This document shows positions 11,424 through 34,774 of a stretch of 64,000 nucleotides of DNA, piece after piece. A program made the position numbers and the translations under genes. Every line of letters begins with the position of its first letter. Position 1 is the stretch's first letter. The DNA lies in assembly GCF_021028975.2 (NCBI RefSeq), contig NC_059438.1:31620001-31684000 (forward strand), read 5' to 3'. Source of the stretch: Sphaerodactylus townsendi. Lineage: Eukaryota. Below the pieces are notes generated by a model that saw only the letters and a program-made list of their open reading frames with translations, did no database searches and had not been told where the DNA came from.

Positions 11424-12279
11424 GACTAGAGTAACCTCTGTACAGGACTGCATTTTAATCGCTCTGCAATGCCTAGTTAACACTGCTGGGGGTTGATTCA
11501 GGAGCTTCTATCCCAAAACTGGTTCCAAAGTCCTTCAGAGAAATTCCATTACCTTTTAGCCACAAATAACTGTCCTCTCTCCCAGTAGGCTCTCATGCGT
11601 TGCTTTATTGCAGTAGGTTTTGAACTTTATCCCTTTTAAAATATGAGTTAGTACAGTGAGCTGGAGATTTGCACACAGGGGAAAGTTCACCCTGAAGTCA
11701 CCCCTAGAACGAATGTTAAGTCCATGAATCTCATGCTGGCTCTCATAAGCATACGAAGGGAGTGATTGATTGTAAGCTGATTTGGGATTCTTTATGGTAG
11801 AGAAAGACAGGATGTAATAACCTACTCCTCTTGAGTGCTTGTCCTGCATACACACACATCATGTTTTAGAAAGTTTTACTGATTATTAACTGGATGGAGC
11901 TTATGTAATTTGTTATTGTGGTTTTGTATAATTTGCTCCTCTATTCAGCATTGTATGAATTTTATGTTGTACACCGCCCGGAGCCCCTCGGGGAAGGGGC
12001 GGTAAAGAAATCGAAGTAATAAATAAATAAAATAAATAACACCGTTTCTGAAAGCAAGCCTGGCCTGTTTGTCCCGGCAGATTTCACTCCCGCCCAGCTG
12101 AAGAAACCAGGTTCAGAGCAGTGGCAAACTAATCTGGAGACCCGGGTTCGATTCCCCACTCCTCCACGTGAAGCCTGCTGGAAGACCTCGGGCCAGCCAC
12201 AGTACTCTCAGGACAGTCTCAGCCCAGGCAACGGCAAACGACCTCTGAACACCTCTTCCCTTGAAAACCCAACCTAACT

Positions 12280-13030
12280 CGCCATAAACCAGCCGGGATC
12301 CGACGAGGCGATAAACTCACTGGGCGCGCTCCTTGGAGAGGGAACACGCTGCGCTTTCGGAAGAATTGCAAGGCTAGCGGGAAAGCTTGCAAGGGGGAAA
12401 CACCCGTGACCCCAGGAAAGCCGGCTGGGAGGGGAAAGGCAGCAGATCCAGAGAGCGCCCCACCCCCCAAAAAACCCCGTTCGCAGCAAACACAGCCGGC
12501 TTGCAAGCAAGAGACCTGCTCGGGGAGGCCTCGATGGAGAAGAGAGGCGCCCCAGCGCGCATGCCCTCCCAGGCCACCCGAGGGATCCAGCCGCTCTCCG
12601 GCAACGTCCAGCTTTGCTTTCCTTCCCCGAGCAACAGCCCGCAGCTGGACCGCGGAGCCAGAGGCCCCCCTGCAAGCCCCGCGCCCGATCCCGAGCTTGC
12701 AACGCGTCCTGCGCGGCGCCCCATGGCCAGCTGCGCCCCTCGCCGCGCCCGGTTGCAGCCCCCCCGACCGGCGTCACCTTGCAGTCTCTCCAGGGCGCCA
12801 TGCTGGCTCGGCTGGGTCCGGGCACCGTTTGCAAAGATCCCGGCCAGCGACCTGCCCTCTCGCCCCCGGAAGAGGGAGACGCCTCCTGCCCGCCCAGCCA
12901 GAAGCGCCGAGGCCAGGAGGGCGTGGTCGGGCAAGTCCCCAGGAGTCCCGCGGGCCCCGCCGTTGCGCCGCGTCCATCCCTTTCCGCGACAGGGCATTCT
13001 CCACTGTCCACTCGCAGCGCGGTGTCATCT
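12280..13030. promoter_or_regulatory. CpG island / TTC38 promoter, divergent from PKDREJ-like copy 1
   Basis: Very GC- and CpG-rich stretch in an otherwise CpG-poor window, spanning TTC38 exon 1. Confidence 0.8.
12778..12801 (-). CDS. TTC38: TTC38 coding exon 1 (start codon)
   Basis: ATG GCG CCC TGG AGA GAC TGC AAG/GTGACG = MAPWRDCK, in good Kozak context (agcATGG) inside a CpG island; joins exon 2 in frame; human has ...LRDCQ|AW. Confidence 0.85.
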
Positions 13031-14160: not shown

Positions 14161-15285
14161 AACTAGAAGAATCCTTCAAGGAGGGTTGCCAGTTCTGGGT
14201 TGGGAAATACCTGGAAATTTGGGAGTGGAGAACAAGAGGATGGGGTTAAGGGAGGGGAGGGACTTCAGTGGGAAATAATATGGAGTTCACCTTCCAAAGC
14301 GGCCATTTTCCCCACCAGAACGGATCTTGGTCACTAGGAGATCTCCACATGCCACCTAGAGGTTGGCACCCCTACTTTAAAAGCAACAACAAATTAATAT
14401 ATTCTTGAGGAGTCATATGATCCACTGAAACACTTCTTAAGCCAAATTTGGATCGTCTCAGGTTGCAAAGTCCTCCCGCCCGTTGCACAGTTTGGAGTGA
14501 CTGTGTGATGGGGGATATGTTTTGTCCATCTCACAGACGCACACTAATGAAATGGCAAGTGCAGTTGTGAAGATGTTTGCAACTGCAACAGCAAATGCTG
14601 GAAATGAAGTCCACCCAGACATATTTGAGGTGGAGAAGACATATACCCCATCATATACAATCACTCCACAGTGAAGGGGCGGAGCGAGGGAGAACTGTGC
14701 CCGGGGCATGCCCTGCGCTCCTGCTGCGGCACCACCCACCTGGAACGCCCCCACCCCAACCATGCTCACGCCCCCCTGCCCGTGGGCACTACACCACTGC
14801 CATAGTGTACCACAGAGAGAAACGCATTTTACTGTGACATGCCTCTGAAGATGTCAGCCATAGATGCGGAGGAAATGTTGGGAGCTAAAACTACCAGACC
14901 ATGGCCACACAGCCCAGAAAACCCAATTGGCCATGCTGGCAGGGGCTGATGGGATTTGTAGTCCATGAACATCTGGAGAGCTGCAGGTTGCGGACCCCTG
15001 ACCTAGATGATTGCAAAGCCTTTGGTGATACTAACCATCAGTTCAAACAAAAAAAATTATAAATGACTTTATTTTTTTTATTTTTTTGCACAGCACCCAG
15101 AGAATAATGTTTTACATACACATGGACGGTGTGTTTTCCAGCCAGGAAACCAGTGTTGGCACCGTAATCAATGTAGCTTCTTGTTGCCCGGGACAACACC
15201 TGGAAGGTTCTAGAAGTAACACAGTTGGTGAGTCTCGGACAAGGTGGGCAGCCGCTCTTCAACTGAGATTCCTTTTCTCACACCA

Positions 15286-18200
15286 ATGATGCATTGCCTC
15301 ACACCTCTCCTCCTCCTCTTGTGGTATTGCTCTCAGTACACAGAGGTACTTTTAACCCTTCCTTTCCTGCCACCCCCATTGTCAGTCACCTGTTCAAACC
15401 CTCGACACCGAGTCTATCAGAGGCAGGACAGCAAACACCATGTCTCATGCTTGTGGGATGGGGACATCCAGCTGAAGTATTCAAAAGCTCCTAGACTGAT
15501 TCCAGATATCAATGGGGAAGAGAACCGTCAGCAGCCCCCTCCTCGCTGTCTCTGGTACCGAGACGCCATCTTGGTAAACACCACAAACAACTGGTCAGGT
15601 GAACTGGTGGTGGGCACAGGCTTCGTCAGGCAAGGTCCCCATCCACCTTGGATCTTCACACGTATCACCATGCACTGCGTATCGTCCTTCTGTTATGGGC
15701 CCACCTGTCTTCACCACAACCTGAGCATTGAAATGACCGTGCAGGATGTCCGTCTTTTCCTGCTTTGGCCGCACAACCTTCCCATCCGTGAATGGCAGCC
15801 GGTGCAGTGGGGTTGGTGTGCACGCCTGAAGAGCTCTACCTGGATCTACCACTTCAGGAGCCAAGGAGGAAGTCCTGCAGACCAACACATCCCTGCAAAT
15901 CAGCATAATAGACCAACTGAGTTCGCTGTTTATCCCCGTGCAGAATTGCACCAAGTGTGTGAATCGTATTATAGCTACCATACCACTGTGAAATACCCCC
16001 TGCGTGGATTCTACACGGTGTCACTCCGCATCGAGAAGGAACCTCAGTTGAGTCGAAGCCTGGACTTGTACGTGCAGCCTGCCCTGCTTCACGTCTTTAC
16101 TGCGTCTTCCAGACTGTCCAGCTTCCCCCATAAAACCCTCGGCCTTTCCTGGACCTTCCAACCTCTGACTGCCGGAATAACAGCTTTTGTGTTGGTGGAT
16201 GAACAGGGTCACGGGGACTGGTATCACTCATACAACGCATTGGCTCTGCAAAGGAATTTCTGTGCTGCACCCAAACCACAACATTCCAGGGAGAAAGTGG
16301 TAGCCAGCACCTACTTCCGTACCAACAAAAGGATATCTGGAGAACTGAGAGGCAAACTCCATTTTTCAGGTGACACCCTGATTTCCGCAGCTGGCTATAC
16401 AATGCCAACTCATCTCACCCTCAACCCACAGAAGATAAGGACTGGCACGTACATTTTTAGTAAACAGGGACTCTTCTATTCCACCCAAAAAGGCAGTGTT
16501 GTCCATGCCACCAGTGAGAACACCAGCTCCCACTACATCTTCTACCAGCAGGAGAGTTTCTCCTTCTTGATCATCCTTGAATCTGTCCAGCTGCAATGGT
16601 ATCGGTTCAACATGCATATGTATTTGAACCGCAGGGGGAGTCTATTCAGGTCGTTGGGAGAACAAGGCATAGAAGTTCATGTTTTCAGTGGTCATTCGCC
16701 TGATATAAATTTGGCTTATATTGTGTGGTTTATTCCTGTACAGCATCCTCGGCTGCAGTGTGAGTGGTCCTTCAACCTGCAACTTTTTGATTCAAAGAAC
16801 GACCATCTCCTTGCAAACAAGACTTATTCCTACAAAGACCATGTTCGAAATGCTGCCCACTTTCTCCCCCACTCTCTTCTACCTTTCAGAGCCGCTCTCT
16901 ACACGGGTTTTGTAGCAGAAGTGAATTGCGGAAGCGCTGGAATGGCTCGAGCTGTTTTAAACACTGAAGTCAGCACTCGTGGATCAAAGGTCTTAAAGCC
17001 GACGGTGCCTTGTCAAAAGAGCTACTGTCAGGAAGTGACTGCCATAATCCAGAAACCTGATCCTTCTAACTCTCTCATAAGCTATACAAGACAGTCAACA
17101 ATCACCTTGCAAGCAACTGCAAAGGCCCTGTGTAGGACAAATCTGCATATAGATATAATCTGGGAAATCTCCAGCGTTCATAGTAAAGGCTCATCAAGAG
17201 CGACCAGCAGGATTAGAACAGTCGGAGTCACATTTCATTTGCCTGGAAAACTCTTAAAGCCTGGCCTGTATCATCTTACAATGACCGTGACCGCATATCT
17301 GCCAGCATATAACATAACCATCAGAGAGTCCGATTCAGTTACCATACATGTTGTAGAAAGTGATTTGGTAGCAGTCATAGCTGGAGGCTCTTTCAGGACA
17401 GTCGGTGTTTCTGATCCTTGGACTTTGGATGCCTCTGCTTCCTTTGACCCCGATTCAGCCAACCCCCACGCAGGACTTGTATTTAACTGGCTGTGCTCCA
17501 AACGAAAACCAGACTTTTTAAAGATGAAACTGAGTACAGATGGGAAATGCCGTCCAGGTCAAGAGACTTTGAAATGGACCGATTCCCAGGAACCGGTTCA
17601 AATAGTACAAAGAGAGACACTTCTACCACAGAACACATATTATTTTATTCTGAGAATTACGAAGGGTAGAAGAACTGCAGATGCTTATCAAACAGTTCGG
17701 GTTCTGCCTGGTTCTCTTCCTGTGTTGAATTTCACCTGCGTTCGAAACTGTAGAAGAAACATTATACCAGCTGAAAGATTAACACTGTATGGGAAGTGTT
17801 TAAACTGTGAAGCTAGTCCAACTGTCTATCAGTGGTCTCTTCTTTCATCAAGCTCCAATAAAATACTTTTTGACTGGGATGCCAAAACTTCAACTGGGAG
17901 GTCGATTCCTTACCTAAGCATCAATCCGTTGGTGTTCAACACTATGCCACACAAATCTTACACTCTTAGCCTCACAACAAGCACAAAAGGGAGACAAGAC
18001 GCCACTTATGAGTATTCGTTTTCTATTAATAATCCCCCACGGATTGGGAAATGTACTATTTATCCAAGGGTAGGCACAGTGTTCCTTACAAAATTTAGTG
18101 TCCAGTGTAGTGGATGGGAAGATGAACATGGACCACTGACGTACAAAATCATAGCACATTCTGATGACATGAAAACGAGTCAAATGTTTTTTCCACAGAA

Positions 18201-21200
18201 TAGTCCATTGGGAACAATAGTATATGTAGGTCACCAACGTCAAAGTCTTCCGTGTTTTCTTCCCCTTGGCACACCATCTAAAAAGTATACCCTGATAGTA
18301 TCTGTTCAGGTGTACGATGCCCTTGGAGCATTTTCTCAAGACATTTTACAAGCCACCGTGCACGATTCAAGGAGAAACCAGTCAACTGCTCTTGTTCTCA
18401 GTGGACTTCACAATTTAATCAGCAGATCAAATGCCCCCATGTCAATTTTCTTCGAAACCAAAGATTACTTTAATATAGGTTATTATGTATATATGGTGGC
18501 CTCAGTATTGAACAATATTAGGTCATCACCAGCCATTCGTGGCTCTAAAACTTACTTGCGGGAAACTCTCCTTAACGTGTCTGCAGGGATTCCAATGACT
18601 GAGATTGGGGTAATAAGGCAAGTGATTGCCAGCGTCTGTCAAATCACACAGGAAGTCACAGAAATAAATGGGAAATCTCAGCTTCTCACAGTCAGGAAGT
18701 TCCAAGAAGCCACCAAAGCTCTACAAAGGCAAAAGGCCAAGGATCTGGATTCTAAGGAAACTGAAATCCTTCTCCACGGTATATTTAGGGGGCTATCAAA
18801 TGTGTTAACAGCTGCTCTATTGGACAGTAGGCATGTCAATATAGATTCAGTTAAGGAAACTATTGCTGTTGCAGAGATACTGGCAAACTTAGTATTGCAG
18901 GACAAAGTTCCTGGCGAGTATGAAACTAATTTAGAAGCTAAAGACTGGGCCATTCATCTACGGAAAGATGAGAAGCGGGATATTTCTCAAACGTTTAGAG
19001 AAAGAAAATGTAAGAACTGCTTCTATCCCAAACTGAAGAAGGAAAACGATACTGACTTCCCTGCGGATGCTGTGGTTTCCACCGTTTTGTATGAATTTGT
19101 TGAGAATCCCTTCCCTTGGCTTGTGGATGCAGCAGCTAATCACATGATAGTGATTGGGTTCAAAATGACCGCAGCTAAAGAAAATGGTGACACTTTAGGG
19201 ATCATACCTGAGGTTGTGGAAGTGATGATGGACATAAAAAACAAGGATTCTGACACCTTTGGCCTAACGGTAGGGCCAGATAAAAAATACCATAAGACAA
19301 CAGGTGGTTTTAGTTTTGAAGTGAGAAGAATCTCCACAGACATATTTGTCCAGATTGAGAGTAAAATAAAGGTTACTTTCAATGTCTCTCTCTATCTTGG
19401 GCTCAATGTCAGCAATCCTCCATTGATTTCTTACGTTGCTTACTTTGACAAACCTTCAGTATTAAATGGAAATTATCCCAATATTAGTGACTGTGCAGTT
19501 AAGACTCCTTATGTCCTTTGTTTTCCTCGGTCCTTGCTTTGGTCTTCAGCGGAAGGCAGCAGAGCAGACAAAAGGAACATCTCCATTGTTTTGCAGTCCC
19601 ATCCTTTTGTGAGAGTCCAAACCTCAAAGGTGGTTCGCATTACTGTTTTTACAACAGGGTGTCTAGACTTAGACAGAGTTCAGAACCAGTGGGAAGAAGA
19701 AACATGCACCCTTGGGTCTCAGACCAGCCAGTCCAAGATCCATTGCATCTGCAAATTAAAAGATACTACCATAAGAACCAAACGGCCCAGGTCAACAGGG
19801 ACCTCCAGCACTAGTGTCAGATTTGTTGCTGGTACATTTCAGATCTATCCCAATCCTTTGGATATAACAAAGGTCCTTTTAGCAGAATTTGACACAAATC
19901 CAGTGACATTGTTTACTGTGTTTTTCATCTTTGCAATCTACATCTTTCTGATTATCTGGGCCACAATGAAAGATAGACTTGACATGAAACGAAAAGACAA
20001 AATCCTTGTTTTGCCAGATAATGACCCTTTTCACAGAGTTTGCTATGTGGTCACTGTATACACAGGAAGTCGTGTCGGATCAGGAACCACAGCGGATGTC
20101 TTTATAGAACTGATAGGCCAAAACGCTGTCAGTGATGTACATCGTTTACAACACCCAACTTTTCCAATCCTCTTTCGTGCAGCTGTCAATACCTTTCTCA
20201 TAACCACCAAGAAAGACTTAGGAGACATTTTTTCTCTTCACGTGTGGCACAATAATGGTGGTTCTTCCCCTAACTGGTACCTAAGCCGAGTTAAAGTGCT
20301 CAATGTCAAAACTAAACAGTCCTGGCTGTTCTTGTGTAGAAACTGGTTTGGCCTTGGTAAGGCAGATTGCAAAATAGAAAGGTCATTTCTCGTGACTAAC
20401 CAAGATTTACCATTAAAAAAAATGGATTACTTCTTGATAAAACTTGCCAAAGACTTGGAAGACAGCCATGTGTGGCTCTCCGTCTTCTCTCAAGTTGTCA
20501 CTGGTCCTTTCAGCAGAGTTCAGAGGATATCTTGTTGCTTGGTGATCATGCTTACTAGCCTGTTATTTAACATCATGTTTTTCAGTGGCGAACAGGAAGA
20601 ACAGGTCATTTCAATACAGCTGCGTTATCTGAAATCCATCTACATTGGATTTGTGAGTGCTATGTTTTCTCTCCCTGTGCATTTGACAATCATAATTTTA
20701 TTTAGATATTCACAAGAAAAGCCTTCGGAATATGAGAATGATGAGAATGAGCAAAAACGGTGTTTCCTTTTAGTATCGGAAAGCTCTGAGGATCTCAATT
20801 TAAACTGGAATGCCCGAAGCCCGTCACGACCAAACCTCCGTAACAATTATTCGGGTGAGAAGGACACAGACACGAAGGCAGGAAGGTTAATATGCCGAGT
20901 GTTGAACTTCCTTTTTATAAGGCCAAAGTTTGCATGGTGGTGCAAGTACGTTTCTTGGACACTGGTCTTTTTAATATCTATCATTTCATCTTCTTTCATC
21001 ATCTTATATGGACTGACCTACGGTTACACAACGTCACTGGAATGGTTCATCGCATCCATGACATCCCTTTTTCAGAGTGTGTTTTTGGTTCAAATTTTGA
21101 AGATGGTTCTTTTCTCAGCTATGAGCACCGTAGTTCTCAAATACTGCAAACATATCCCCTGGATAAGCACAGAAAAATATGAACAGATGAAGCTGGAGAA

Positions 21201-22995
21201 AACGACTGTGCTTGGCAAAGACATGAAAAAGCTTCATCATGAACTTGTGCAACTTAGAGCATCCCGGGAATACCGGCCTCTAGAAGAGGACGAAGTCATC
21301 ATTATGAGGAAGAGAACAAGAGCGCAACACCTAGCTTTTGTTTTTGTAAAAGATATTATTTGTCACCTGATCTTTTCATCCTGTGTTTTAAGCATTGCCT
21401 ACTCAGTAGATACCACTACTAGCTTTCGTTACAATCAAGCAATTTATGAGAAATTCTCTGTTAATCTGTCCCAAGTAAATAGGTTGGAGGACGTGTACAC
21501 GTGGACAAGCAATGTCTTCGTGCCACTGATCCACAATGATGATCAACCAACCTATCTTTTAGACACTTGGTCTAAAATTCTTGGGTTGCCCAGAATGAGG
21601 CAAATAAGAGCCTCAAGTGCTAGGAAAACATGCTTCCATTCACACAGCTTCGTAAATAGTTTTCTGGTTAATGAAAGCCACTGCCGTTACAAATACGGAA
21701 AAGATCCAGAAGATGAAACGGATTATATTGGATCATGGACAATCCCCATGAATAAATCCACTTCCAAACACTCCAGCAGTTTTCAAGGGTTTACATTTGA
21801 GTCAGACATTGATCAGTGGGAATATAAGTCTTATGGTATTTTAAACACATATGGCCCCGAGGGGTATAGCTTTTATTTTTTCCCTAGAGAACAGCGACCC
21901 AATACCACAATGAGGCTGGATGATCTTCAAAGAAACGTCTGGCTTGACGAGAGGACCTGGGTCGTTATTTTTGAGCTGACCATTTTCAATGCAGACATAG
22001 ATCAATACTGCAGTATAACAGTCATGTTTGAGACTTCTGACATTGGAATTATTCATGCCAGCTTGTCAACACATACTTACAAACTGTCTGTTTTCCGTCT
22101 TCAAACTAAGTCCCAGATAGTGGCATATGGATTGATGACATACATTCTGATCTTTTACCTAGCCGATGAATTTAATATGTTACGTCAGGAAAGGATAGGC
22201 TACCTAAAAACAACCACCAACTTAATCAATTTTGCAATAAAGACCAGCTGTATATTTTTTATCTTGTTAATTGCACTCAAATTCAAAATGGCTTTTACCT
22301 TGATACAATTTTTTCTCCTGAATCCAGAAAAATTTGTTCCTTTTCATGTGGTTTCTCAAATTGATCAACTCTATAGGATGGTGGCAGGAGTTTTGACCTT
22401 CCTTCTGGTTTTAAAGCCTTATCGCTATTTTAGATTCATGTATAATGTCCGTCTAGCAGAAAAAACCATAGCAGCTGCTTTACCGCTGTTTGTTTCTTTG
22501 TCTGTGCTAACTGGTTTGCTCCTTTTCGCGCACATATCATTTGGATACCTTACATTTGGTGAATATCAATGGGATGATAATGATTCTATGATTCATTCTG
22601 GTGAGACTATTGTTTCATACTGTTTTCACATGATGACACTTAAGGATATTACGTTTTCATCCAATTCATGGATTGGCCTCTTGTTACGAGTTTTATTTAT
22701 TTATGCCATTATCGGTGTTCTTATTCATTTGTGGCAGTCTGTAGTTATCTTTACCTATGCATCGATGAAACAGCCAACCTACGAACTGCACTCTGACGAA
22801 GCAGAAGCAGTAAACTTTGTGGTTCATAAAATCCAAAGTCTATGGTGTCGCATAACCCATCAGACACCGTCCACAAGCAGCACTGGCCCTATGGACACTA
22901 TAATATTTGGAAAAGTGGCAAGAGGAAAGGGTAAGCATCTAGGACTCAAAAGCACCGAAGTTGAAGGCCAGAAAATGGTTTATCTTTCCGTTTAA
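15286..22995 (+). CDS. PKDREJ: PKDREJ-like paralog 1: intronless polycystin-1 family receptor (signal peptide, REJ, GAIN/GPS, PLAT, 11-TM/channel domain), ~2569 aa, divergent copy
   Basis: Uninterrupted 7.7-kb ORF; first ATG at 15286 precedes hydrophobic MMHCLTPLLLLLWYC; REJ motif LDASASFDPD; PLAT YVVTVYTGSRVGSGTTADVFIELIG...WHNNGGSSPNWYLSRVKV; LGLPRMRQIR; C-terminus KMVYLSV; position between TTC38 and CDPF1. Confidence 0.92.
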   Translation: MMHCLTPLLLLLWYCSQYTEVLLTLPFLPPPLSVTCSNPRHRVYQRQDSKHHVSCLWDGDIQLKYSKAPRLIPDINGEENRQQPPPRCLWYRDAILVNTTNNWSGELVVGTGFVRQGPHPPWIFTRITMHCVSSFCYGPTCLHHNLSIEMTVQDVRLFLLWPHNLPIREWQPVQWGWCARLKSSTWIYHFRSQGGSPADQHIPANQHNRPTEFAVYPRAELHQVCESYYSYHTTVKYPLRGFYTVSLRIEKEPQLSRSLDLYVQPALLHVFTASSRLSSFPHKTLGLSWTFQPLTAGITAFVLVDEQGHGDWYHSYNALALQRNFCAAPKPQHSREKVVASTYFRTNKRISGELRGKLHFSGDTLISAAGYTMPTHLTLNPQKIRTGTYIFSKQGLFYSTQKGSVVHATSENTSSHYIFYQQESFSFLIILESVQLQWYRFNMHMYLNRRGSLFRSLGEQGIEVHVFSGHSPDINLAYIVWFIPVQHPRLQCEWSFNLQLFDSKNDHLLANKTYSYKDHVRNAAHFLPHSLLPFRAALYTGFVAEVNCGSAGMARAVLNTEVSTRGSKVLKPTVPCQKSYCQEVTAIIQKPDPSNSLISYTRQSTITLQATAKALCRTNLHIDIIWEISSVHSKGSSRATSRIRTVGVTFHLPGKLLKPGLYHLTMTVTAYLPAYNITIRESDSVTIHVVESDLVAVIAGGSFRTVGVSDPWTLDASASFDPDSANPHAGLVFNWLCSKRKPDFLKMKLSTDGKCRPGQETLKWTDSQEPVQIVQRETLLPQNTYYFILRITKGRRTADAYQTVRVLPGSLPVLNFTCVRNCRRNIIPAERLTLYGKCLNCEASPTVYQWSLLSSSSNKILFDWDAKTSTGRSIPYLSINPLVFNTMPHKSYTLSLTTSTKGRQDATYEYSFSINNPPRIGKCTIYPRVGTVFLTKFSVQCSGWEDEHGPLTYKIIAHSDDMKTSQMFFPQNSPLGTIVYVGHQRQSLPCFLPLGTPSKKYTLIVSVQVYDALGAFSQDILQATVHDSRRNQSTALVLSGLHNLISRSNAPMSIFFETKDYFNIGYYVYMVASVLNNIRSSPAIRGSKTYLRETLLNVSAGIPMTEIGVIRQVIASVCQITQEVTEINGKSQLLTVRKFQEATKALQRQKAKDLDSKETEILLHGIFRGLSNVLTAALLDSRHVNIDSVKETIAVAEILANLVLQDKVPGEYETNLEAKDWAIHLRKDEKRDISQTFRERKCKNCFYPKLKKENDTDFPADAVVSTVLYEFVENPFPWLVDAAANHMIVIGFKMTAAKENGDTLGIIPEVVEVMMDIKNKDSDTFGLTVGPDKKYHKTTGGFSFEVRRISTDIFVQIESKIKVTFNVSLYLGLNVSNPPLISYVAYFDKPSVLNGNYPNISDCAVKTPYVLCFPRSLLWSSAEGSRADKRNISIVLQSHPFVRVQTSKVVRITVFTTGCLDLDRVQNQWEEETCTLGSQTSQSKIHCICKLKDTTIRTKRPRSTGTSSTSVRFVAGTFQIYPNPLDITKVLLAEFDTNPVTLFTVFFIFAIYIFLIIWATMKDRLDMKRKDKILVLPDNDPFHRVCYVVTVYTGSRVGSGTTADVFIELIGQNAVSDVHRLQHPTFPILFRAAVNTFLITTKKDLGDIFSLHVWHNNGGSSPNWYLSRVKVLNVKTKQSWLFLCRNWFGLGKADCKIERSFLVTNQDLPLKKMDYFLIKLAKDLEDSHVWLSVFSQVVTGPFSRVQRISCCLVIMLTSLLFNIMFFSGEQEEQVISIQLRYLKSIYIGFVSAMFSLPVHLTIIILFRYSQEKPSEYENDENEQKRCFLLVSESSEDLNLNWNARSPSRPNLRNNYSGEKDTDTKAGRLICRVLNFLFIRPKFAWWCKYVSWTLVFLISIISSSFIILYGLTYGYTTSLEWFIASMTSLFQSVFLVQILKMVLFSAMSTVVLKYCKHIPWISTEKYEQMKLEKTTVLGKDMKKLHHELVQLRASREYRPLEEDEVIIMRKRTRAQHLAFVFVKDIICHLIFSSCVLSIAYSVDTTTSFRYNQAIYEKFSVNLSQVNRLEDVYTWTSNVFVPLIHNDDQPTYLLDTWSKILGLPRMRQIRASSARKTCFHSHSFVNSFLVNESHCRYKYGKDPEDETDYIGSWTIPMNKSTSKHSSSFQGFTFESDIDQWEYKSYGILNTYGPEGYSFYFFPREQRPNTTMRLDDLQRNVWLDERTWVVIFELTIFNADIDQYCSITVMFETSDIGIIHASLSTHTYKLSVFRLQTKSQIVAYGLMTYILIFYLADEFNMLRQERIGYLKTTTNLINFAIKTSCIFFILLIALKFKMAFTLIQFFLLNPEKFVPFHVVSQIDQLYRMVAGVLTFLLVLKPYRYFRFMYNVRLAEKTIAAALPLFVSLSVLTGLLLFAHISFGYLTFGEYQWDDNDSMIHSGETIVSYCFHMMTLKDITFSSNSWIGLLLRVLFIYAIIGVLIHLWQSVVIFTYASMKQPTYELHSDEAEAVNFVVHKIQSLWCRITHQTPSTSSTGPMDTIIFGKVARGKGKHLGLKSTEVEGQKMVYLSV

Positions 22996-23016
22996 GAAAG
23001 ATGTTGCTAAAACTTG

Positions 23017-23022
23017 AATAAA
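23017..23022 (+). other. Probable polyadenylation signal of PKDREJ-like 1
   Basis: AATAAA 21 nt after the stop codon, followed by a T-rich stretch. Confidence 0.55.
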
Positions 23023-24104
23023 TTCCATATTTCTTTCCTGAACTGATATACATTTTTTTCCTAAATATGCTGTTCAATTGCCATTAGTTCCACTTCTCAA
23101 CTATTTCTACTTCTGCTATCAATTGCCAGCTTGGAGTGCTTTTCCAGATTACAAACATGCTACAGTGAACTTTGGCCAACTTAATCACTATCCAAACTAA
23201 GGTTAAGGTCAAACTAGGTATGATGGCACTCTTGTGGCTACAATGAGGACACCACTGCCATTTAAAAGTGACTTTAAAATATTGCAAGGTTCTTCAGCGT
23301 GGGGCTCAGTCTCCCTCCCCTCTCCCCACATCTTTTCATATGATGAAGCAGCTCTGGTATACTCTTTTCCATGAAAAGATGACAGTAATTTTTTATATTA
23401 ATTTGCCATTTCCTGGACCTTGTTTATAGTAGAAGAATTAGGTGAGCACTAGGACCCCTGTGGAACATTCTACTGCAAAGAAGGGTCCAGGAGATGGCAG
23501 ATTAATATACAAATGTACTGTCATCTTTTCGTGGAAAAGTTTCGTGGCAGTCGTTTTGACACTTGTACAGAGTGGGGGCAGGGGGAGCACAGATAAAAAG
23601 TGTCATGCAGAGGGGTCTGATCAGGATTGGGCCCTTGCAGCATTTGTAAATCACTTTTCAGTGGTGGTGGTACCCCCATGGTGGCCACGAGGATACTGTC
23701 ACATCTAGTTTGGCCTTAGACATTTTACCAACTTCTGTTTTTTTGAATGTCAGTGGACTTGACTTGGGAAAGGGGTGGACTGCAGTGGTTATGACTCCTG
23801 TGTGGACAGAGTTGCCAGCTCCGAGTTAAGAAATACCTAGATATTTAGAGGGTGGAGCCTCAGGAGGGTGGGGAGGAACTTCAGTGGCCAGCAAGTCCAC
23901 CTGTCATACAGTCCACCTTCCTAAGTGGCCATTTGCTCCAGCCAAACCATTTTCCCTGGTGCTTGGAGATCAGTTGTAATAGCAGGAGATCTCCAGTCAA
24001 ATCCTGGAAATTGGCAACCGTGCATATGGGTGACCATTGAGCTGCTCCTCCCCTGGCACCTAGCCTGCAGAAGCCTGTGTGAACCAGCTTTATTACTAGA
24101 GAAG

Positions 24105-26890: not shown

Positions 26891-29800
26891 ATGCACCGTG
26901 TGTCGTGCACCCTCCTCCTCTTCTGGTACTGGCGCTGCTTCCAGTACCCAGAGGCTACGGCCCCTTGTTTACTGCCATCACCATTGCTGGTCATCTGCTC
27001 AGACCCACAAACCCATTTCAGACAGCAGCAAAACTCCACCGTTAGGACTTCATGCCTATGGGACGGAGACCCCAAGCTCTACTGCCTGAGAGTCTCGGGA
27101 TTTGTGTCAAGAATTAGAAGGGGATGCACAGATTTTCCATCTTCTGATTGTAGCTGGTGCTGGAGATCAGCCTGGATGCGTAGTACGATTCTCCGGCAGT
27201 GTCGGTGGCTGCTGGGCTTCTGCCTCAAAACACATCCGCCTTGGGATTCCAGCCGGATCCCCATACAGGGTGCATCAATTTCCTGCAGAGTGCCCACGTG
27301 CCTTCACCATGACCTGAGCACTGAAGTGTTTGGCCAGGACATCCAGCTTCTCCTGCTCCAGCCACTCACATGTCCTGCCTCTAAGCAAAAACCAGTGCTG
27401 CTTGGCTGGTGTGCACGCCTCAACAGTTCAAGATGGCCTTCCCACCACAGTGGTCAAGGAGGTGAACCTGTGGTCTTGCTCCTCCCTGCTAGCTATCGTC
27501 CAGATTCTCCACACCATCATAATGGTAAATTGTACAACACGTGCATCTCCTACTTCAGCTACCACCCGAAAGTTCATGATACCCACCAAGGGCTACATGT
27601 TGCTTCCCTCCACACTGATCATGGACCTCAAGACAGCCTTAGTCTGGACTTGCTGGTGGAACCCATCCTGGTACACCTTTTTAGCATCCATTCCAAATGG
27701 CTCGCTATCACTCATAGCACCATCAATCTCTTTTGGAGCCTCTTACGTGTAAGCCCCAGAAAAATGGCCTATAGGCTGTTAGACGTTGAGAGTGGATTCT
27801 GGTCTACCTCCTACAGTCCATATGTTCTGAAGAACAATTTCTCTGTTGGCCGTATCCCACAGCATTCCAGGAAGAAGGTTGTAGCCAGCATATATTTTTG
27901 CACTGAAGAAGGGGAAACTGGGGAGCTGAGAGGGGAACTTGGGTACTCTAATGCCACCTTAAGTCTAACATCTAAGAGTGAGCCACCATTTCATTTCACT
28001 CTCAACACAAGCAAAATCAAGATGGGCACCTACCTTTTCAGTCCAGCACGGGGACTGTACTATTCCACCCAAGAAGGAAAGACTCCTGATGATCCCTCCA
28101 GCATGCACTACTTTTTCTACCAGCAGCAAACCCTCTCGTATCTATTCACCATCGAGTTTCACCAATGGCAATGGTACAGGTTGAGCATGCACACGTACCT
28201 TAACAGGAAGGGAATCCCTTTACAAAAGTTTTTCCCAGAGAAAAATATAGAAGTTCATGTTTTCAACAGCGGTCCTTCTTTTTTACAAAGTTTGATCTAT
28301 ATTGTGTGGTTTGTTCCTATACAACACCCACTATTGCAGAATGAGTGGACCTTTGAGTTGCAATTGTTTGATTCAAGAGGGGACTTCCTCCTACGAAACA
28401 ATACTTATACGTATAGGGATCGCATCAAAAATGCGGCCCATTTTATTCCTCACTTTGTTTTACCTTTCAATCCTGCCTTGTATGCGGGTTTTGTAGCACC
28501 AGTGAACTGCACTAAAAGACTGATAAGGGCTGTTTTAAAAACTACAATCAACCCTTACGCTTCAAAGGAAAGCAACTTCACAGTTCCTTGCCTTCAAAAC
28601 GATTGTTTTATTAAACATGTTAAAATACGTAAACCTGATTCTTCTAACAGTGTCTTACAGTACAGTAAAGGGACCTCGTTTACTCTGTCTGCTGACATAC
28701 AGATGAATTGCCCAAGTTCTAAACACAGAGGCAATATTTGGAAAATCTATAAAGTCTCAGATGTGAAGGCTACCCCTGACTGGTCAAAACCTTTTGATCC
28801 ACCTGGCCTTGGAAGGCAAGATCTTGTTATGTTAGATGTTCCTGGTTCTACTTTCGATGATGGTTTGTATCTCTTTAATTTCACAGTTAAATTAACCACA
28901 ACAGGTACTTCAGAGACTGTGGAGGATTCTGATTCGGTGTTTGTCCAGGTTGGGTCAGGTAGTCTTGTGGCCATCATTGCTGGAGGCAATTTTCGGACAG
29001 TTGGATTTTCTGATCAATGGACTCTAGATGGATCTTATTCCTATGATACCGAGGCAGCCCTTCCTTCTGAAAGGATCACCTTTACTTGGTACTGCACCAA
29101 ACAAAAATCAGACTACGCATCCATGACGCTAAGTTTGAAGGGAAAATGTCACCCAGATCAAGTGAATTTGAAATGGACAACATCATCTAATGAAGTCCAA
29201 ACAGTGCAGCCGGAAACCCTTCAAGCAAATATTATTTATTATTTTTGTCTCGCGGTTCAAAAAGGTGGCAGGATAGCTCGGGCTGAACAAACAGTTCATG
29301 TGCAGCCAAGCTCTGTTCCAATTCTGAACATCACATGTATTGAAAATTGTGGTCCGTCAGTCACACCCAGAGAAAGGTTGTGTCTGTCTGGCAAGTGCAT
29401 GAACTGTGGGAAATCAATCAGACTGCTCTATCATTGGTCACTTCTCACGGCAAATTTCACTGAAATAAATTTTGATTGGGATGCCAAGACTACAACTGGA
29501 CGGTCTAGTCCATACATGTGTATCAAAACTCTGAGTTTTCTAAATATGACAGAGGCAACATACGTGCTTACTCTAAAAGCAAGCATCTGGAGATACCAGT
29601 CATCTGTTTATAACTATTCATTTTTTGTAAATTCTCCTCCTCAGATCGGCAAGTGCTTGCTTAAGCCTACCACAGGAAGTGTGTTTCTAACAAAATTCAT
29701 TGTTCACTGTAGCGGGTTTAGAGATAAACATTTGCCTCTTACATATAAAGTCAAAGCAGCGTCCCACCCGTTAACAATTACTAAAGTGTTTTCTATAGAA

Positions 29801-32800
29801 AACAACACCCCGGGGACAATTGTGTATTCTGGTTATCGGTCTAAAATCCCACCATCTTTTTTACCCATTGGCATCCCCTCTAAGCAATATACCTTGACAA
29901 TACACATTGAGGCATACGATGCTCTTGGAGCATTTTCTCAAGTAACCTTACAGGCAAAGGTACACGGTCCATTCATAGGTAAGCAAACAGATTATATTCT
30001 AAATGAATTACATGGTTTATCCAGTGGGCCAAAAGCTCCAATTTCATATTTTCTTGAAAGTGGGGATTATTTTAATGCAGGATATTTTGTCTACATGGTG
30101 GCTTCTGTTTTGAACAGTATTGAAGCTTTGCAACAATTTCACTCCTCTAAGACCGAGCTTCGGGAAATCCTTCTTAACAAGTCTGCAGAAATCCCTACAA
30201 CTGGCATACTGGAACTAACCCAAATGGTTTCAGGAATTTCTCAAATAACGCAGGAAGCCGCAGAAGTAAACAGGAAGACACAACTCCTTGCCCTCAGAAA
30301 ACTCAAAGAACTGAGTAAAGAACTGAAAAGGTACAGAGATAAAAACTTGGGTTCTAGGGACATAGAAGTTCTCAGCACTGGTATTTTTGAAGGGCTGTCC
30401 AATATCCTGAAAGCATCTCTGCTAGACTACAGAAATGTCCATAAAAATGGGGTGACAGACACTCTCTCCATCACTGAGATATTAGCAGAAATAATCTTAC
30501 AAGGTAAAGTCCCTGGAGAAAATGAAACTGTTATGGAAACCAGTGACTGGACCATTAGATTCAGAAAAGACGCCAAGTGGAGTGTTCCTGGTACTTTCCC
30601 TCACAGAGGGGTCTGTAAGAATTGCTTTTATTCCAAAATCAATCAAGAGGGTCATGACGAATTGCCAGCAGATGCTGAAGTCTCCACTGTTGTTTTTGCA
30701 TTTCATAAAAACCCTTTCCCTTGGTTACCCTTTTCAAAAGATATCAGCACAACGGTGACTGGATTCAAGATGACGGGAACCAGATCTGATGGCAACATAG
30801 TGGGGGTCATACCTGACGTAGCTGAAATGATCATGACCAGAAAAGATGAGGGCCCTGCCATCTTTGAGCTGAATATTGGACACAACAGAAAACTTCACAA
30901 AAAAACTGGAGGCTTTAGTTTTGAAGTACATAGAAATTCCAAAGAAGTTTTCATCCAGATTGTAACTGAACGGAAGCTTACTTTCCAGCTATTTGTTTAT
31001 CTAGGCCTCAACATCAACCATCCTCCCATCGCATCTTTCAGTGGTTCCCATAACAAACATACAGCAACAACAGGAAAGAAGTCTAAGGGCCATGGCTGTG
31101 CAGCCCAAGATTCTTCTATATTTTGCCTTTCCCGGTCTTTGCTGAAATCCATGTTCCAAGGTAACAGTGCTGAAAAATGGAACATGTCTATTATTTTACA
31201 ATCAGATCCTTTCTTGTGGGACCCAAGAGTTCAGGTCGTTGGTGTCAGACTTTTTACCGCTGACTGCTTATACCTAGATGGAATCCAGAGTCAATGGAAA
31301 GAAGGTGTCTGCGACCTTGGCCCTCAGACGAGCTGGGAGAAATTACATTGCATCTGCAAAGCCAAACAACGTACTCCAAGAACAGCAAGTCCTCGACCGA
31401 GAAGAACTTCCAAAAATGACATGAAATTTTTGGCGGGCAAAGTCAGCGTCCACCCTGATTTGAAGGAGGTCCCGTTGGTACGCGTCAACAACAACCCAGT
31501 GACAACTGTGACGGTCCTTTTCATTTTTGTCGTATACATTTGCTTGGCTGTTTGGACCATGAGGAAAGACAGGGCTGATGTAAAAAGCGTAGACCATATC
31601 ATAGTCTTATCAGACAATGACCCCTATGACCAAGTATGTTACTTTGTCACAATATACACAGGAAGCCGCTTTGGAGCAGGAACCACAGCCGATGTTTTCA
31701 TCCAACTGATAGGCCACAGAGATGCCAGCGACATACATTGTTTGAGACACCCCGAATACCCAGTTCTTGTCCGTGGAGCAGTCAACACTTTTCTCCTGAC
31801 TAGCAAGAACGACCTTGGAGATATTTATTCCTTCCGTGCGTGGCACAATCATGGAGGTTCATCTCCTAACTGGTTCTTGAGTAGAGTCAAAGTGCAAAAC
31901 GTATTCACCAAACAATCTTGGAAGTTCATATGCCGAAAATGGTTTGCGCTCAATAAGGATGATGGTCTAATAGAAAGGTCGTTTGTTGCCACTCACCCCA
32001 CCACACCTTTAAGCAAAATGGATTTCTTCTGGATAAATCTTGCCTGTGAGTTAGCAGAGACCCACCTATGGCTTTCTGTTTTCGCTCACATCAGCACCAG
32101 TTCTTTGAAAAGGCTCCACAGGTTGTCTTCTTGCTTGGCGATGCTGTTGTGCACCCTACTTTTCAATATCATCTTCTTCAGTGCTAACAAGGATGAGCTA
32201 GTGGCTTCTCAACAGCCGTTGTATTTGAGGTCTCTACTGACTGGAATTCATAGCGCTTTCATTTTCTTCCCTCTACAGATATTGATAACCGTCTTGTTCA
32301 AGTATTCTCAGCAGAAGCCTTTGCAACAGGGCCCGTTTAACACTCAGCATCAAGGACGTTCTGCTTTCATGTCTAGAAATCTTAGGAACTGGAAGGAGCG
32401 TCTGCAGAAATGGTACCTTGCTGAAACCGCTTCAAAAGGTTTAGGCGATAGTTTCCACAAGAGCCTTTCTAGAACTCCAGATTCATACGGTTTGGAACAG
32501 TTGAAAAGAAAAAGCTGGGGGCAGGCAGCAAAGAAACAGAGTAACTGTACTGTTTCTGAGGGGGATGCAAATATAATTGCAACGGAAGAGGACATGGTTC
32601 ATGATGCCCAAGCCCCCAACAATTTTAATAACAGACATGAGAAGAAAGACCCATTTCCTCAGGTAACACCACTAAATAGTCCCATTGTGCTCTCTAATAA
32701 AAACCCACAAATAATAATCCCCTGGTGGTATGCATATGTCTTGTGGACGCTGGTCTTGGTCACTTCGACGGTGTCATCGTTTTTTATCATATTTTACGGC

Positions 32801-34774
32801 CTGTCGTATGACTATGAAACATCTTTTGAGTGGCTTATAGCCTCGAGCGTTTCATTTTGCGAGAGCGTGTTTTTGCTTCAAACCTTGAACGTTGCTTTCT
32901 TTTCAGCCTTGAGGACACTCTATCCAAAGTATTGTGATAATATCCCATGGTCAAAACGAGAAACCTACTTAGAGATTAAACTGGACAATAAAACTATGGA
33001 TGCCGATGAGATGCGCGAGTTACATTATGAGCTGGTCCGTCTTCGAGGCACCAAACAATACCAGCCCTTGGAAGAGGACGAAGTTGCACTTTTAAAGAAA
33101 AAGCAGAAGGTTGAACAACAGGCTTTTGTGTTCATAAAGGGTATCATATGTCACTTTGTCTTTTTAATTCTTATTTTAAGTATCGCCTACTCAATGGAAA
33201 ACACTGCTAGTTTTTACTACAATCAAGACATTCATAACAAATTCTCTCAGGGGCTCTCAGATATAAGCAAGCCAGAGCACATTTACAGTTGGCTGAAGAA
33301 TGTATTTCTACACTTGATCCACAACAAGAACTACCCATCTTATCTTTCAAAGTCCTGGTCCAAAATCCTGGGGTTGCCCAGAATGCGACAAATAAGAGCA
33401 ACGAATACGTCAAAGGATTGCTTTCATCCACGCAGTTTGGTAAATTTGTTTGTGATTAGTAACAGTCATTGTCTTCACCATTATGGACATGACCCAGAAG
33501 ATCAACGAGATTACCATGGGTCATGGACAAATTCTGCCAATGAATCCATTTTCAACCCTTTCAGCAATTTTTCAGGCTACACATACTATTCAGTCCCTGA
33601 ACAATGGAAATATACTTCATATGGAACACTACATGCTTATGGAGCAGGAGGATATACTTTTCATTTCCACCCAGAAGAACAACAGTCCAATTCATCAAGA
33701 AGAGTTGCTTTTTTGAAACAGAGAGGCTGGTTGGATGAAAATACATGGGCATTAATAGTTGAGCTGACAGCTTTTAATCCAGATGCAGATTTATTTTGCA
33801 GCATCTCGGTTGTTTTTGAGATGTCTGACTTAGGCCCTGTTAACACAAGCTTGTCAATCCATTCATACAAACTCCCACTTTTCAAGCAGCTAAGTAAGAC
33901 ACAAAAATTCGTGTTTGTCACTGTTGCCTATATACTCATATTTTATATCGCCGACGAAATTTGCGTGGTGCAACAACAGCGACTAAGATACGTCCGAAAT
34001 GTTTCTAACTTAATTAACTTTGGGATAAAGACAGTTTGTCTCTTTTATCTTTTGAACCATTCCTTCAAGTTCAAGTTGGCTTCCAGCTTAATACAGCTTT
34101 ATTTACTTCATCCAAAAGAATTCATTCCATTCCATAAAGTTTCTCACATCGATCAGACAATAAGGGTCGCTTTAGGTTTTTTGATCTTTCTTATCATTTT
34201 GAAAACGCTGCGATATTCTCGGTTCTTTTATGATGTGCGATTGGCTCAACGCTCTATCTTAGCAGCCCTCCCTGGAATTTGCTCCATGGCTCTTGTGGTG
34301 GCAGTATATTTCTTTGTCTACATGGCATTTGGCTACCTGGTATTTGGCCAGTATGAATGGAACTACAATACTATGATTCATTCCGCTCAAACAGTATTCT
34401 CTTACTGTGTTTCAGCTTTTAAAGACACTGCCTTTACATCCAATAGGATACTAGGAAGCCTCTATTTGTCTTCATTTATGATGGTCATGATTTGTGTGTT
34501 GATCAATTTATTTCAAGCTGTGATTATGTCTTCCTATGAAGACATGAAACAACCCGTCTATGAAGAGCCTTCTGAAGAAGCAGAAGTGGTCAAGTTTCTG
34601 TGTCACAAGATCCGCAAGATATGGTTTTTGATAAGGTGTAAAACGCCACCTGAACATGATGCCGAGCTTTTCATTCGATTTCTGTATGGGCATTCAGAAA
34701 GGAGAAACTCGCGTCACCTAGGACTCAAAGCCAGGAAAATAAATGGCCGGAAAATGGTTTATCTTGTTGTTTGA
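26891..34774 (+). CDS. PKDREJ: PKDREJ paralog 2: intronless polycystin family receptor for egg jelly, ~2627 aa, conserved (ortholog-like) copy
   Basis: Uninterrupted 7.9-kb ORF; ATG at 26891 before MHRVSCTLLLFWYW; same domain order; C-terminal channel region LKTLRYSRFFYDVRLAQR...FGYLVFGQYEWNY...QTVFSYCVSAF...MKQPVYEEPS...KMVYLVV is close to recalled mammalian PKDREJ. Confidence 0.95.
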   Translation: MHRVSCTLLLFWYWRCFQYPEATAPCLLPSPLLVICSDPQTHFRQQQNSTVRTSCLWDGDPKLYCLRVSGFVSRIRRGCTDFPSSDCSWCWRSAWMRSTILRQCRWLLGFCLKTHPPWDSSRIPIQGASISCRVPTCLHHDLSTEVFGQDIQLLLLQPLTCPASKQKPVLLGWCARLNSSRWPSHHSGQGGEPVVLLLPASYRPDSPHHHNGKLYNTCISYFSYHPKVHDTHQGLHVASLHTDHGPQDSLSLDLLVEPILVHLFSIHSKWLAITHSTINLFWSLLRVSPRKMAYRLLDVESGFWSTSYSPYVLKNNFSVGRIPQHSRKKVVASIYFCTEEGETGELRGELGYSNATLSLTSKSEPPFHFTLNTSKIKMGTYLFSPARGLYYSTQEGKTPDDPSSMHYFFYQQQTLSYLFTIEFHQWQWYRLSMHTYLNRKGIPLQKFFPEKNIEVHVFNSGPSFLQSLIYIVWFVPIQHPLLQNEWTFELQLFDSRGDFLLRNNTYTYRDRIKNAAHFIPHFVLPFNPALYAGFVAPVNCTKRLIRAVLKTTINPYASKESNFTVPCLQNDCFIKHVKIRKPDSSNSVLQYSKGTSFTLSADIQMNCPSSKHRGNIWKIYKVSDVKATPDWSKPFDPPGLGRQDLVMLDVPGSTFDDGLYLFNFTVKLTTTGTSETVEDSDSVFVQVGSGSLVAIIAGGNFRTVGFSDQWTLDGSYSYDTEAALPSERITFTWYCTKQKSDYASMTLSLKGKCHPDQVNLKWTTSSNEVQTVQPETLQANIIYYFCLAVQKGGRIARAEQTVHVQPSSVPILNITCIENCGPSVTPRERLCLSGKCMNCGKSIRLLYHWSLLTANFTEINFDWDAKTTTGRSSPYMCIKTLSFLNMTEATYVLTLKASIWRYQSSVYNYSFFVNSPPQIGKCLLKPTTGSVFLTKFIVHCSGFRDKHLPLTYKVKAASHPLTITKVFSIENNTPGTIVYSGYRSKIPPSFLPIGIPSKQYTLTIHIEAYDALGAFSQVTLQAKVHGPFIGKQTDYILNELHGLSSGPKAPISYFLESGDYFNAGYFVYMVASVLNSIEALQQFHSSKTELREILLNKSAEIPTTGILELTQMVSGISQITQEAAEVNRKTQLLALRKLKELSKELKRYRDKNLGSRDIEVLSTGIFEGLSNILKASLLDYRNVHKNGVTDTLSITEILAEIILQGKVPGENETVMETSDWTIRFRKDAKWSVPGTFPHRGVCKNCFYSKINQEGHDELPADAEVSTVVFAFHKNPFPWLPFSKDISTTVTGFKMTGTRSDGNIVGVIPDVAEMIMTRKDEGPAIFELNIGHNRKLHKKTGGFSFEVHRNSKEVFIQIVTERKLTFQLFVYLGLNINHPPIASFSGSHNKHTATTGKKSKGHGCAAQDSSIFCLSRSLLKSMFQGNSAEKWNMSIILQSDPFLWDPRVQVVGVRLFTADCLYLDGIQSQWKEGVCDLGPQTSWEKLHCICKAKQRTPRTASPRPRRTSKNDMKFLAGKVSVHPDLKEVPLVRVNNNPVTTVTVLFIFVVYICLAVWTMRKDRADVKSVDHIIVLSDNDPYDQVCYFVTIYTGSRFGAGTTADVFIQLIGHRDASDIHCLRHPEYPVLVRGAVNTFLLTSKNDLGDIYSFRAWHNHGGSSPNWFLSRVKVQNVFTKQSWKFICRKWFALNKDDGLIERSFVATHPTTPLSKMDFFWINLACELAETHLWLSVFAHISTSSLKRLHRLSSCLAMLLCTLLFNIIFFSANKDELVASQQPLYLRSLLTGIHSAFIFFPLQILITVLFKYSQQKPLQQGPFNTQHQGRSAFMSRNLRNWKERLQKWYLAETASKGLGDSFHKSLSRTPDSYGLEQLKRKSWGQAAKKQSNCTVSEGDANIIATEEDMVHDAQAPNNFNNRHEKKDPFPQVTPLNSPIVLSNKNPQIIIPWWYAYVLWTLVLVTSTVSSFFIIFYGLSYDYETSFEWLIASSVSFCESVFLLQTLNVAFFSALRTLYPKYCDNIPWSKRETYLEIKLDNKTMDADEMRELHYELVRLRGTKQYQPLEEDEVALLKKKQKVEQQAFVFIKGIICHFVFLILILSIAYSMENTASFYYNQDIHNKFSQGLSDISKPEHIYSWLKNVFLHLIHNKNYPSYLSKSWSKILGLPRMRQIRATNTSKDCFHPRSLVNLFVISNSHCLHHYGHDPEDQRDYHGSWTNSANESIFNPFSNFSGYTYYSVPEQWKYTSYGTLHAYGAGGYTFHFHPEEQQSNSSRRVAFLKQRGWLDENTWALIVELTAFNPDADLFCSISVVFEMSDLGPVNTSLSIHSYKLPLFKQLSKTQKFVFVTVAYILIFYIADEICVVQQQRLRYVRNVSNLINFGIKTVCLFYLLNHSFKFKLASSLIQLYLLHPKEFIPFHKVSHIDQTIRVALGFLIFLIILKTLRYSRFFYDVRLAQRSILAALPGICSMALVVAVYFFVYMAFGYLVFGQYEWNYNTMIHSAQTVFSYCVSAFKDTAFTSNRILGSLYLSSFMMVMICVLINLFQAVIMSSYEDMKQPVYEEPSEEAEVVKFLCHKIRKIWFLIRCKTPPEHDAELFIRFLYGHSERRNSRHLGLKARKINGRKMVYLVV

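Follow-up and report, generated by a model that had tools for sequence, protein, structure and literature searches.

A conserved N-terminal region of the sperm polycystin PKDREJ, its predicted β domains, and its probable nested loss in mammals

Mammalian PKDREJ is reported to be testis-restricted, to reside on the sperm head bound to PKD2 or PKD2L1, and to modulate G-protein signalling and the timing of the acrosome reaction, with a mild knockout phenotype (PMC13218627, PMC5579115, PMC9265791, PMC12799467). Recognition is assigned to the N-terminal part in both sea-urchin REJ and ascidian s-Themis (PMC1934368, PMC7018956). The lectin domains of sea-urchin REJ1–3 are reported to be under positive selection (PMC1934368), and in s-Themis the polymorphism of a sperm/egg-coat recognition pair resides in the N-terminal hypervariable region (PMC7018956). 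The sperm polycystins s-Themis-A and s-Themis-B both carry an N-terminal recognition region and, as far as the available descriptions go, one has a channel and the other is a 5-pass protein without it. PKD repeats are listed for PKD1, PKD1L1, and PKD1L2, not for PKDREJ, in the available text of one paper (PMC1934368). PKDREJ has been reported in gar and elephant shark and as lost in teleosts (PMC5318412), squamates are reported to have three tandem duplicates, one of them absent in gekkotans (10.1101/672238), and a gene-wide dN/dS of 0.25 has been given (PMC10776941).

Here we analyse the region ahead of REJ in two PKDREJ genes of the gecko Sphaerodactylus townsendi. The protein itself is already known: public gene models named PKDREJ or PKDREJ-like contain the region. 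In the literature, among the matches listed and mostly outside subscription journals, we found no description of the domains D1–D3, their nested loss, or the reciprocal divergence of squamate paralogs; the available text of one match (PMC6660944) has the name PKDREJ only within a reference. The region is a real, conserved, ancestral architecture of a known gene that has apparently gone undescribed.

Tandem PKDREJ genes and the domains predicted ahead of REJ

The window, a stretch of 64,000 nucleotides, contains two tandem PKDREJ genes on the forward (+) strand. Copy 1 (15286–22995, 2569 aa) and copy 2 (26891–34774, 2627 aa) each read in the genomic sequence as a single long, uninterrupted, intronless ORF. 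REJ, PLAT, polycystin (TOP), and PKD-channel domains follow in this order in both, all above the Pfam cut-offs, and a whole-genome search returns two matches, copy 1 and copy 2. Both group with named PKDREJ orthologues in a quick IQ-TREE tree of PKDREJ only (51 rows out of 52, after removal of a partial protein; SH-aLRT support only), in which vertebrate relationships are recovered and gecko proteins are the nearest relatives. PKD1 matches score far below PKDREJ matches.

The nearest in-frame stop lies 18 codons (copy 1) or 15 codons (copy 2) upstream of the ATG, and a hydrophobic stretch follows the ATG in both copies. Single contigs of two DNA runs, X2 (14972–23387) and X3 (15081–23387), span the copy-1 ORF at flat depth, which rules out an assembly artefact. 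The assembly is contradicted by all four runs at 20094, a synonymous site in the ORF, and at 23125–23192, beyond the copy-1 stop, where the runs carry 16 substitutions and several indels; these are likely local consensus errors. Several public models of the locus skip parts or fuse neighbouring copies (P0140, P0006, P0013, P0023, P0064), and single-exon PKDREJ genes are therefore often mis-annotated. Downstream of copy 2, on the same strand, lie exons matching CDPF1 (PF10170; 42231–42359 and 46757–46882), which are matched by the PF10170-bearing ends of two fused bird models; we take CDPF1 to be the neighbour of PKDREJ in human synteny. A GC-rich island (64%) at 12001–13000, 2.3 kb upstream of copy 1, is possibly the promoter of the neighbouring gene, presumably TTC38 by human synteny.

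A preliminary description of this DNA, made from the sequence alone, had proposed a long N-terminal extension shared by both copies and containing β-sandwich modules. The extension is borne out by the ORFs, the DNA runs, the homologues, and an alignment of the two copies (177/441 identities, pairwise E 6e-90). All six shared blocks named there occur in both copies, and the tryptophan of the motif QWYR(F/L)xMHxYL is found at 16597 (copy 1) and 28172 (copy 2), as claimed. The modules gain support as a prediction from AF2 and structural matches. AF2 gives a pLDDT of 81.2 and a pTM of 0.65 (five models, 78–81). D1-D2-D3-D4-REJ are predicted to form a chain of β-sandwiches.

In copy 1, a predicted signal peptide (15286–15351, +; hydrophobic 8-mer 2.56 on the Kyte-Doolittle scale) precedes D1; a similar stretch stands ahead of D1 in 73/82 testable homologues, and M2 has the better Kozak context. 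D1 (residues 32–151; 15379–15738, +) is a predicted Ig-like β-sandwich with six conserved cysteines (36, 55, 88, 131, 136, and 141). D2 (residues 153–266; 15742–16083, +) is a predicted PKD-fold domain with an insertion and the conserved pair C178 and C225. D3 (residues 267–448; 16084–16629, +) is a predicted all-β domain of ~180 aa, unclassified, whose last strand is WYRFNMHMYL; the module thus ends after the WY strand, at residue 448, and not before it, as had been proposed. D4 (residues 462–578; 16669–17019, +) is a PKD/FnIII-like pre-REJ domain with an LPF-x-P insert, followed by the REJ module (PF02010, residues 616–1066, plus the start of the first Ig-like domain; 17020–18483, +). In copy 2, the signal peptide and D1–D3 occupy 26891–28201 (+); D1 and D2 are more diverged, and C131 and C326 are lost.

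The top structural match of D2 is a PKD domain, and the predicted D2 has the seven-stranded Ig-like fold of that family. The PKD-like motif noticed earlier at 15988–16035 (+), VKYPLRGFYTVSLRIE, is confirmed in copy 1 and is absent from copy 2. It forms the E-F strand pair of D2 with the PKD-type pattern Y-x-x-x-G-x-Y-x-V, and its G241 is conserved in at least 90% of 89 proteins. Sequence support for D2 as a PKD domain is weak (hhalign 5–7%): a home-made PKD HMM scores at least 10 bits on 12/89 D2 sequences (best 21.4) and on 0/89 reversed ones, and also on 8/89 D3 sequences, and PF00801 matches 0/13 members at E ≤ 1. Because of the absent Pfam match we call D2 PKD-like and do not file it under PF00801. 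The strand C motif of PKD domains is WDFGDG, seen as xDFGDG in the profile comparison; D2 has WIYHFRSQGG at the equivalent place. D2 differs from the PKD domains (PF00801) of SorCS2 and polycystin-1 in this motif, in a ~35-aa insert with a conserved cysteine pair, and in the Pfam result.

D4 matches the last pre-REJ domain of other PKD1-family proteins (hhalign 30–52%; at least 5 bits in 70/89 D4 sequences and 0/89 reversed). PKD1, PKD1L1, and sea-urchin SpREJ likewise have PKD-fold domains upstream of REJ, the last of which is the one that D4 matches, but the gecko extension has no Pfam match to C-type lectin, SUEL, LRR, or WSC domains. Pfam finds no family in the extension of either copy and no lectin family in 13 members, and thus gives no support for a C-type lectin or SUEL ligand domain. 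For D3, multi-domain fold searches return match lists filled by D1-D2 or D4-REJ, so that D3 is barely sampled; Atlas Ig-superfamily features of 0.80–0.82 are a lead only.

Distribution in jawed vertebrates and reduction in mammals

Residues 25–440 as query return 46 proteins, and every named one belongs to a squamate or a turtle. With the downstream part as query, birds, platypus, and a frog are added, and local BLAST finds the extension in these too. In a profile search of 1.84 billion representatives there are 91 matches, 20 of them named, and the full-length N-terminal profile matches proteins of sawshark (338 bits), sturgeon (422), coelacanth (479), and lungfish (579), as well as axolotl, newt, and frogs. 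The region is covered in 89 of the 226 proteins scanned. None of the D1–D3 profiles matches PKD1, PKD1L1, or any invertebrate polycystin tested, including the Styela match (D1 and D3 profiles). Since the matches span shark to birds, the extension is the ancestral jawed-vertebrate state and no reptile addition, contrary to the earlier wording 'kept in reptiles'. From the sequence comparisons, the N-terminal region is very probably the ancestral outer end of the PKDREJ ectodomain, with nested loss in mammals.

The nine cysteines of D1–D3 are almost invariant outside one paralog clade: they are kept in 16–17/17 proteins of squamate clade a, 12/12 of clade c, 5/5 turtle, 22/22 bird, and 7–8/8 anamniote proteins. 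N-glycosylation sequons are found at position 145 in 75/89 and at position 362 in 70/89. Between copy 1 and copy 2, dN/dS is 0.49 (D1), 0.24 (D2), and 0.35 (D3), against 0.27 for REJ, with dS near saturation. The tip looks constrained (dN/dS < 1), without the positive selection often seen at gamete-recognition surfaces. Clades a and c, turtles, and birds all retain both C326 (D3) and C492 (D4); C326 is lost in 15/15 and C492 in 11/15 clade b proteins, and shark has neither. The two residues may form an interdomain disulfide.

Mammals were scanned with per-domain HMMs built without mammals (reversed controls 0/22); the counts cover one monotreme, 10 marsupial sequences (nine species), and five placental species, excluding the partial placental models P0149 and P0150. 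Platypus has no D1 match, 28 bits for D2 over 48/127 columns, 107 bits for D3, and 144 for D4. In marsupials, D3 and D4 are found in 10/10 sequences, and D1 or D2 in 0/10. In placentals, D1–D3 are detected in 0/5 species, and D4 scores 10–11 bits in 2/5. The part before REJ spans 163–253 aa in five placental proteins and 577–614 aa in three sauropsids, in line with the claim that it is much longer than in mammals, and its Gly/Ala/Arg/Pro fraction is 0.38–0.64 in placentals versus 0.23–0.28 in sauropsids. Human PKDREJ presumably reaches the equivalent WY motif within ~90 aa. Placental PKDREJ (human, mouse) shares with the gecko copies the intronless gene, the REJ, PLAT, polycystin, and channel domains, the C-terminal motif, and one tree clade, but differs in the short part before REJ, with D1–D3 undetected and D4 degenerate at most.

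The claim 'lost in mammals' therefore holds for placentals and fails for platypus (part of D2, and D3) and marsupials (D3), in which mammalian orthologs do contain part of the region. We infer that loss or decay of D1 predates crown mammals, that D2 disappeared before therians arose, and that D3 went, along with most of D4, before placentals. Among egg-coat genes, ZPD is reported as lost before mammals, ZPY as present only in monotremes, and ZPAX as lost in placentals (PMC8005149). The loss of D1–D3 parallels this loss of ZP genes. The parallel is no more than suggestive, since just three events are involved, all in a single lineage, and since D3 is retained in Monodelphis, where ZPAX is a pseudogene. 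Monodelphis also has two PKDREJ copies (P0142 and P0219), 94% identical, whose differences lie chiefly in the first Ig-like domain of REJ; this domain is also unusually diverged there (22–23 bits vs 76–87 in Australian marsupials and Dromiciops).

Squamate paralogs and short passerine proteins

The tree contains three squamate PKDREJ clades (off-tree proteins being assigned by similarity); the gecko has two copies, copy 1 in clade a and copy 2 in clade b. This matches the three tandem squamate copies of the RELEC paper (10.1101/672238), where the duplicates serve as phylogenetic markers and the available text mentions neither domains nor reciprocal divergence. In D1 and D2, clade a resembles turtle more than clade b does in 10/10 pairs (eight from the same species, two from the same genus or family). 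The clades are equal in D3, and clade a is the more distant in D4, REJ, PLAT, TOP, and S2–S6. In S2–S6, mean identity to turtle is 0.75 for clade b and 0.44 for clade a, with clade b closer in 10/10 pairs. The ten pairs are not independent because they share two stem branches. In three clade b sequences, two of them from named colubroid snakes, D1 is down to 5–16 bits. The Pfam channel score is 107 bits for copy 1 vs 182 bits for copy 2, whose channel is conserved; S2–S6 of copy 1 (22096–22785) is a drifted channel half that keeps an open frame.

All 16 short bird proteins examined (14 named passerines and two unnamed; P0100–P0102, P0105–P0108, P0110, P0113, P0116–P0118, P0121, P0122, P0126, and P0129) stop before TOP and the channel half. 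Passerine PKDREJ is ~1980–2050 aa when complete; the parrot, falcon, and pigeon proteins are full length. The 14 named passerine proteins keep D1–D3 and thus have the tip but no pore of their own. The short protein would be a 5-pass form like s-Themis-A. The channel difference between s-Themis-A and s-Themis-B resembles both the split between copy 1 and copy 2 and these short proteins, but the N-terminal region of s-Themis is hypervariable where the vertebrate tip is conserved, and the likeness is one of description.

Run X3, from another sample under the same species label, differs from the window at 13 positions within 398 bp (15656–16053, +), at the end of D1 and in D2; 8/13 are common to run X4 of a second species (species B). 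The rest of the copy-1 ORF in X3 (7.7 kb) has one difference, at the site where all four runs differ, and the 8.3-kb contig has 30 in all (13 + 1 + 16 beyond the stop). The block holds seven non-synonymous (six codons) and six synonymous changes, with no excess, and its divergence is 3.3% vs about 2–2.5% to species B. This suggests an old allele under balancing selection, or introgression; as one collapsed contig, it is a lead only.

Possible role of the N-terminal tip

The explanation that we favour, as a reasonably probable one, is an ancestral three-β-domain tip, likely egg-coat-contacting, that was shed stepwise in mammals and split between squamate copies. D1 (Ig-like), D2 (PKD-fold), and D3 (larger, unclassified) would form the egg-coat-contacting tip of a sperm polycystin, projected from the sperm head by the D1-D2-D3-D4-REJ chain. 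Reasoning by analogy, we lean towards D1–D3 binding an egg-side ligand, which could be an egg-coat or jelly component. REJ/GAIN and the membrane part might then relay the signal to a PKD2-type channel partner or to G proteins and so set when the acrosome reaction occurs, the effect reported for mouse PKDREJ. In mammals the tip would have disappeared in three nested losses. Between the squamate duplicates the functions would have been divided, with the clade of copy 1 retaining the tip and that of copy 2 the channel. Against this explanation we count that the tip looks constrained, with no non-synonymous excess in the X3 block either, that sequence support for D2 as a PKD domain is weak, that the first AF2 model gave D2 a pLDDT of 25–50, that the squamate pairs are not independent, that the mammal losses all fall on one lineage and come from gene models with Gly/Ala/Arg/Pro-rich N-termini, that placental PKDREJ affects acrosome-reaction timing though it lacks the tip (PMC9265791, PMC5579115), and that the PKD and REJ domains of PKD1 are described as extensible elements (PMC1934368).

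Another role, which we regard as doubtful, is mechanical: D1–D3 may sense stretch or act as a spacer or spring that keeps the receptor beyond the sperm glycocalyx, with ligand contact elsewhere, for instance in REJ. PKD and Ig folds are common spacers and generic stalk units, and the loss proceeds from the tip inwards, leaving a Gly/Ala/Arg/Pro-rich linker. PKD repeats and REJ reportedly unfold reversibly under force (PMC1934368), and one review places the important segment in human REJ (PMC5579115). For a spacer, changes in the number of repeats would be expected; instead, the three domains differ from one another and retain both their order and their cysteines from shark to bird. D3 is no simple repeat, and the clade-specific conservation of D1-D2 in squamates accompanies lost conservation of the channel.

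More improbable is a far-reaching version of the egg-coat proposal, in which D1–D3 are an egg-coat-binding head, with D3 an undescribed domain family; in mammals, the disappearance of the three domains kept step with that of ZPD (before mammals), ZPY (after monotremes), and ZPAX (in placentals), so that human PKDREJ is a relic without its head; receptor and channel came apart independently in squamates and in passerines, as in s-Themis-A/B; and D2 carries old balanced alleles in the gecko.

We consider it distinctly improbable that the tip binds a partner carried by the sperm or by the oviduct wall, in sperm transport or storage. Oviductal sperm storage is found in many of the lineages with the tip, but sturgeon, lungfish, and most frogs are external fertilisers and keep the whole tip. 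Knockout mouse sperm are reported to arrive late at the egg (PMC9265791). We give practically no credence to an untranslated open frame or a functionless reptile-specific insertion: some public models start later or skip the extension (P0067, P0069, P0091), and in one, nearly identical to copy 2, part of it is spliced out (P0140), but from shark to birds both the reading frame and the sequence are maintained, along with invariant Cys and Trp, a signal-like stretch, sequons, and a confident fold, and this conservation already refutes the idea.

We know of no ligand of PKDREJ, and to our knowledge ligand and knockout have been studied only in placentals, that is, without the ancestral tip. If the tip is a binding head, a 430-aa soluble construct (chicken, Xenopus, or axolotl) should allow its ligand to be found, and the mild phenotype of knockout mice would have an explanation. 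Whether a polycystin-1-type receptor depends on a pore half of its own is a question for which there are three natural experiments: the nested loss in mammals, the reciprocal divergence in squamates, and the passerine form without a channel.

Before TM1, neither copy has a Pfam GPS match. A GPS-like site at ~19800–19880 (copy 1) and 31400–31480 (copy 2) has W..HCxC, followed by HL(T/S) in 0/96 proteins. R-x-x-R occurs within 30 aa after the site in 54/96 proteins, both copies included, a count taken without a control. Furin-type cleavage possibly replaces self-cleavage there.
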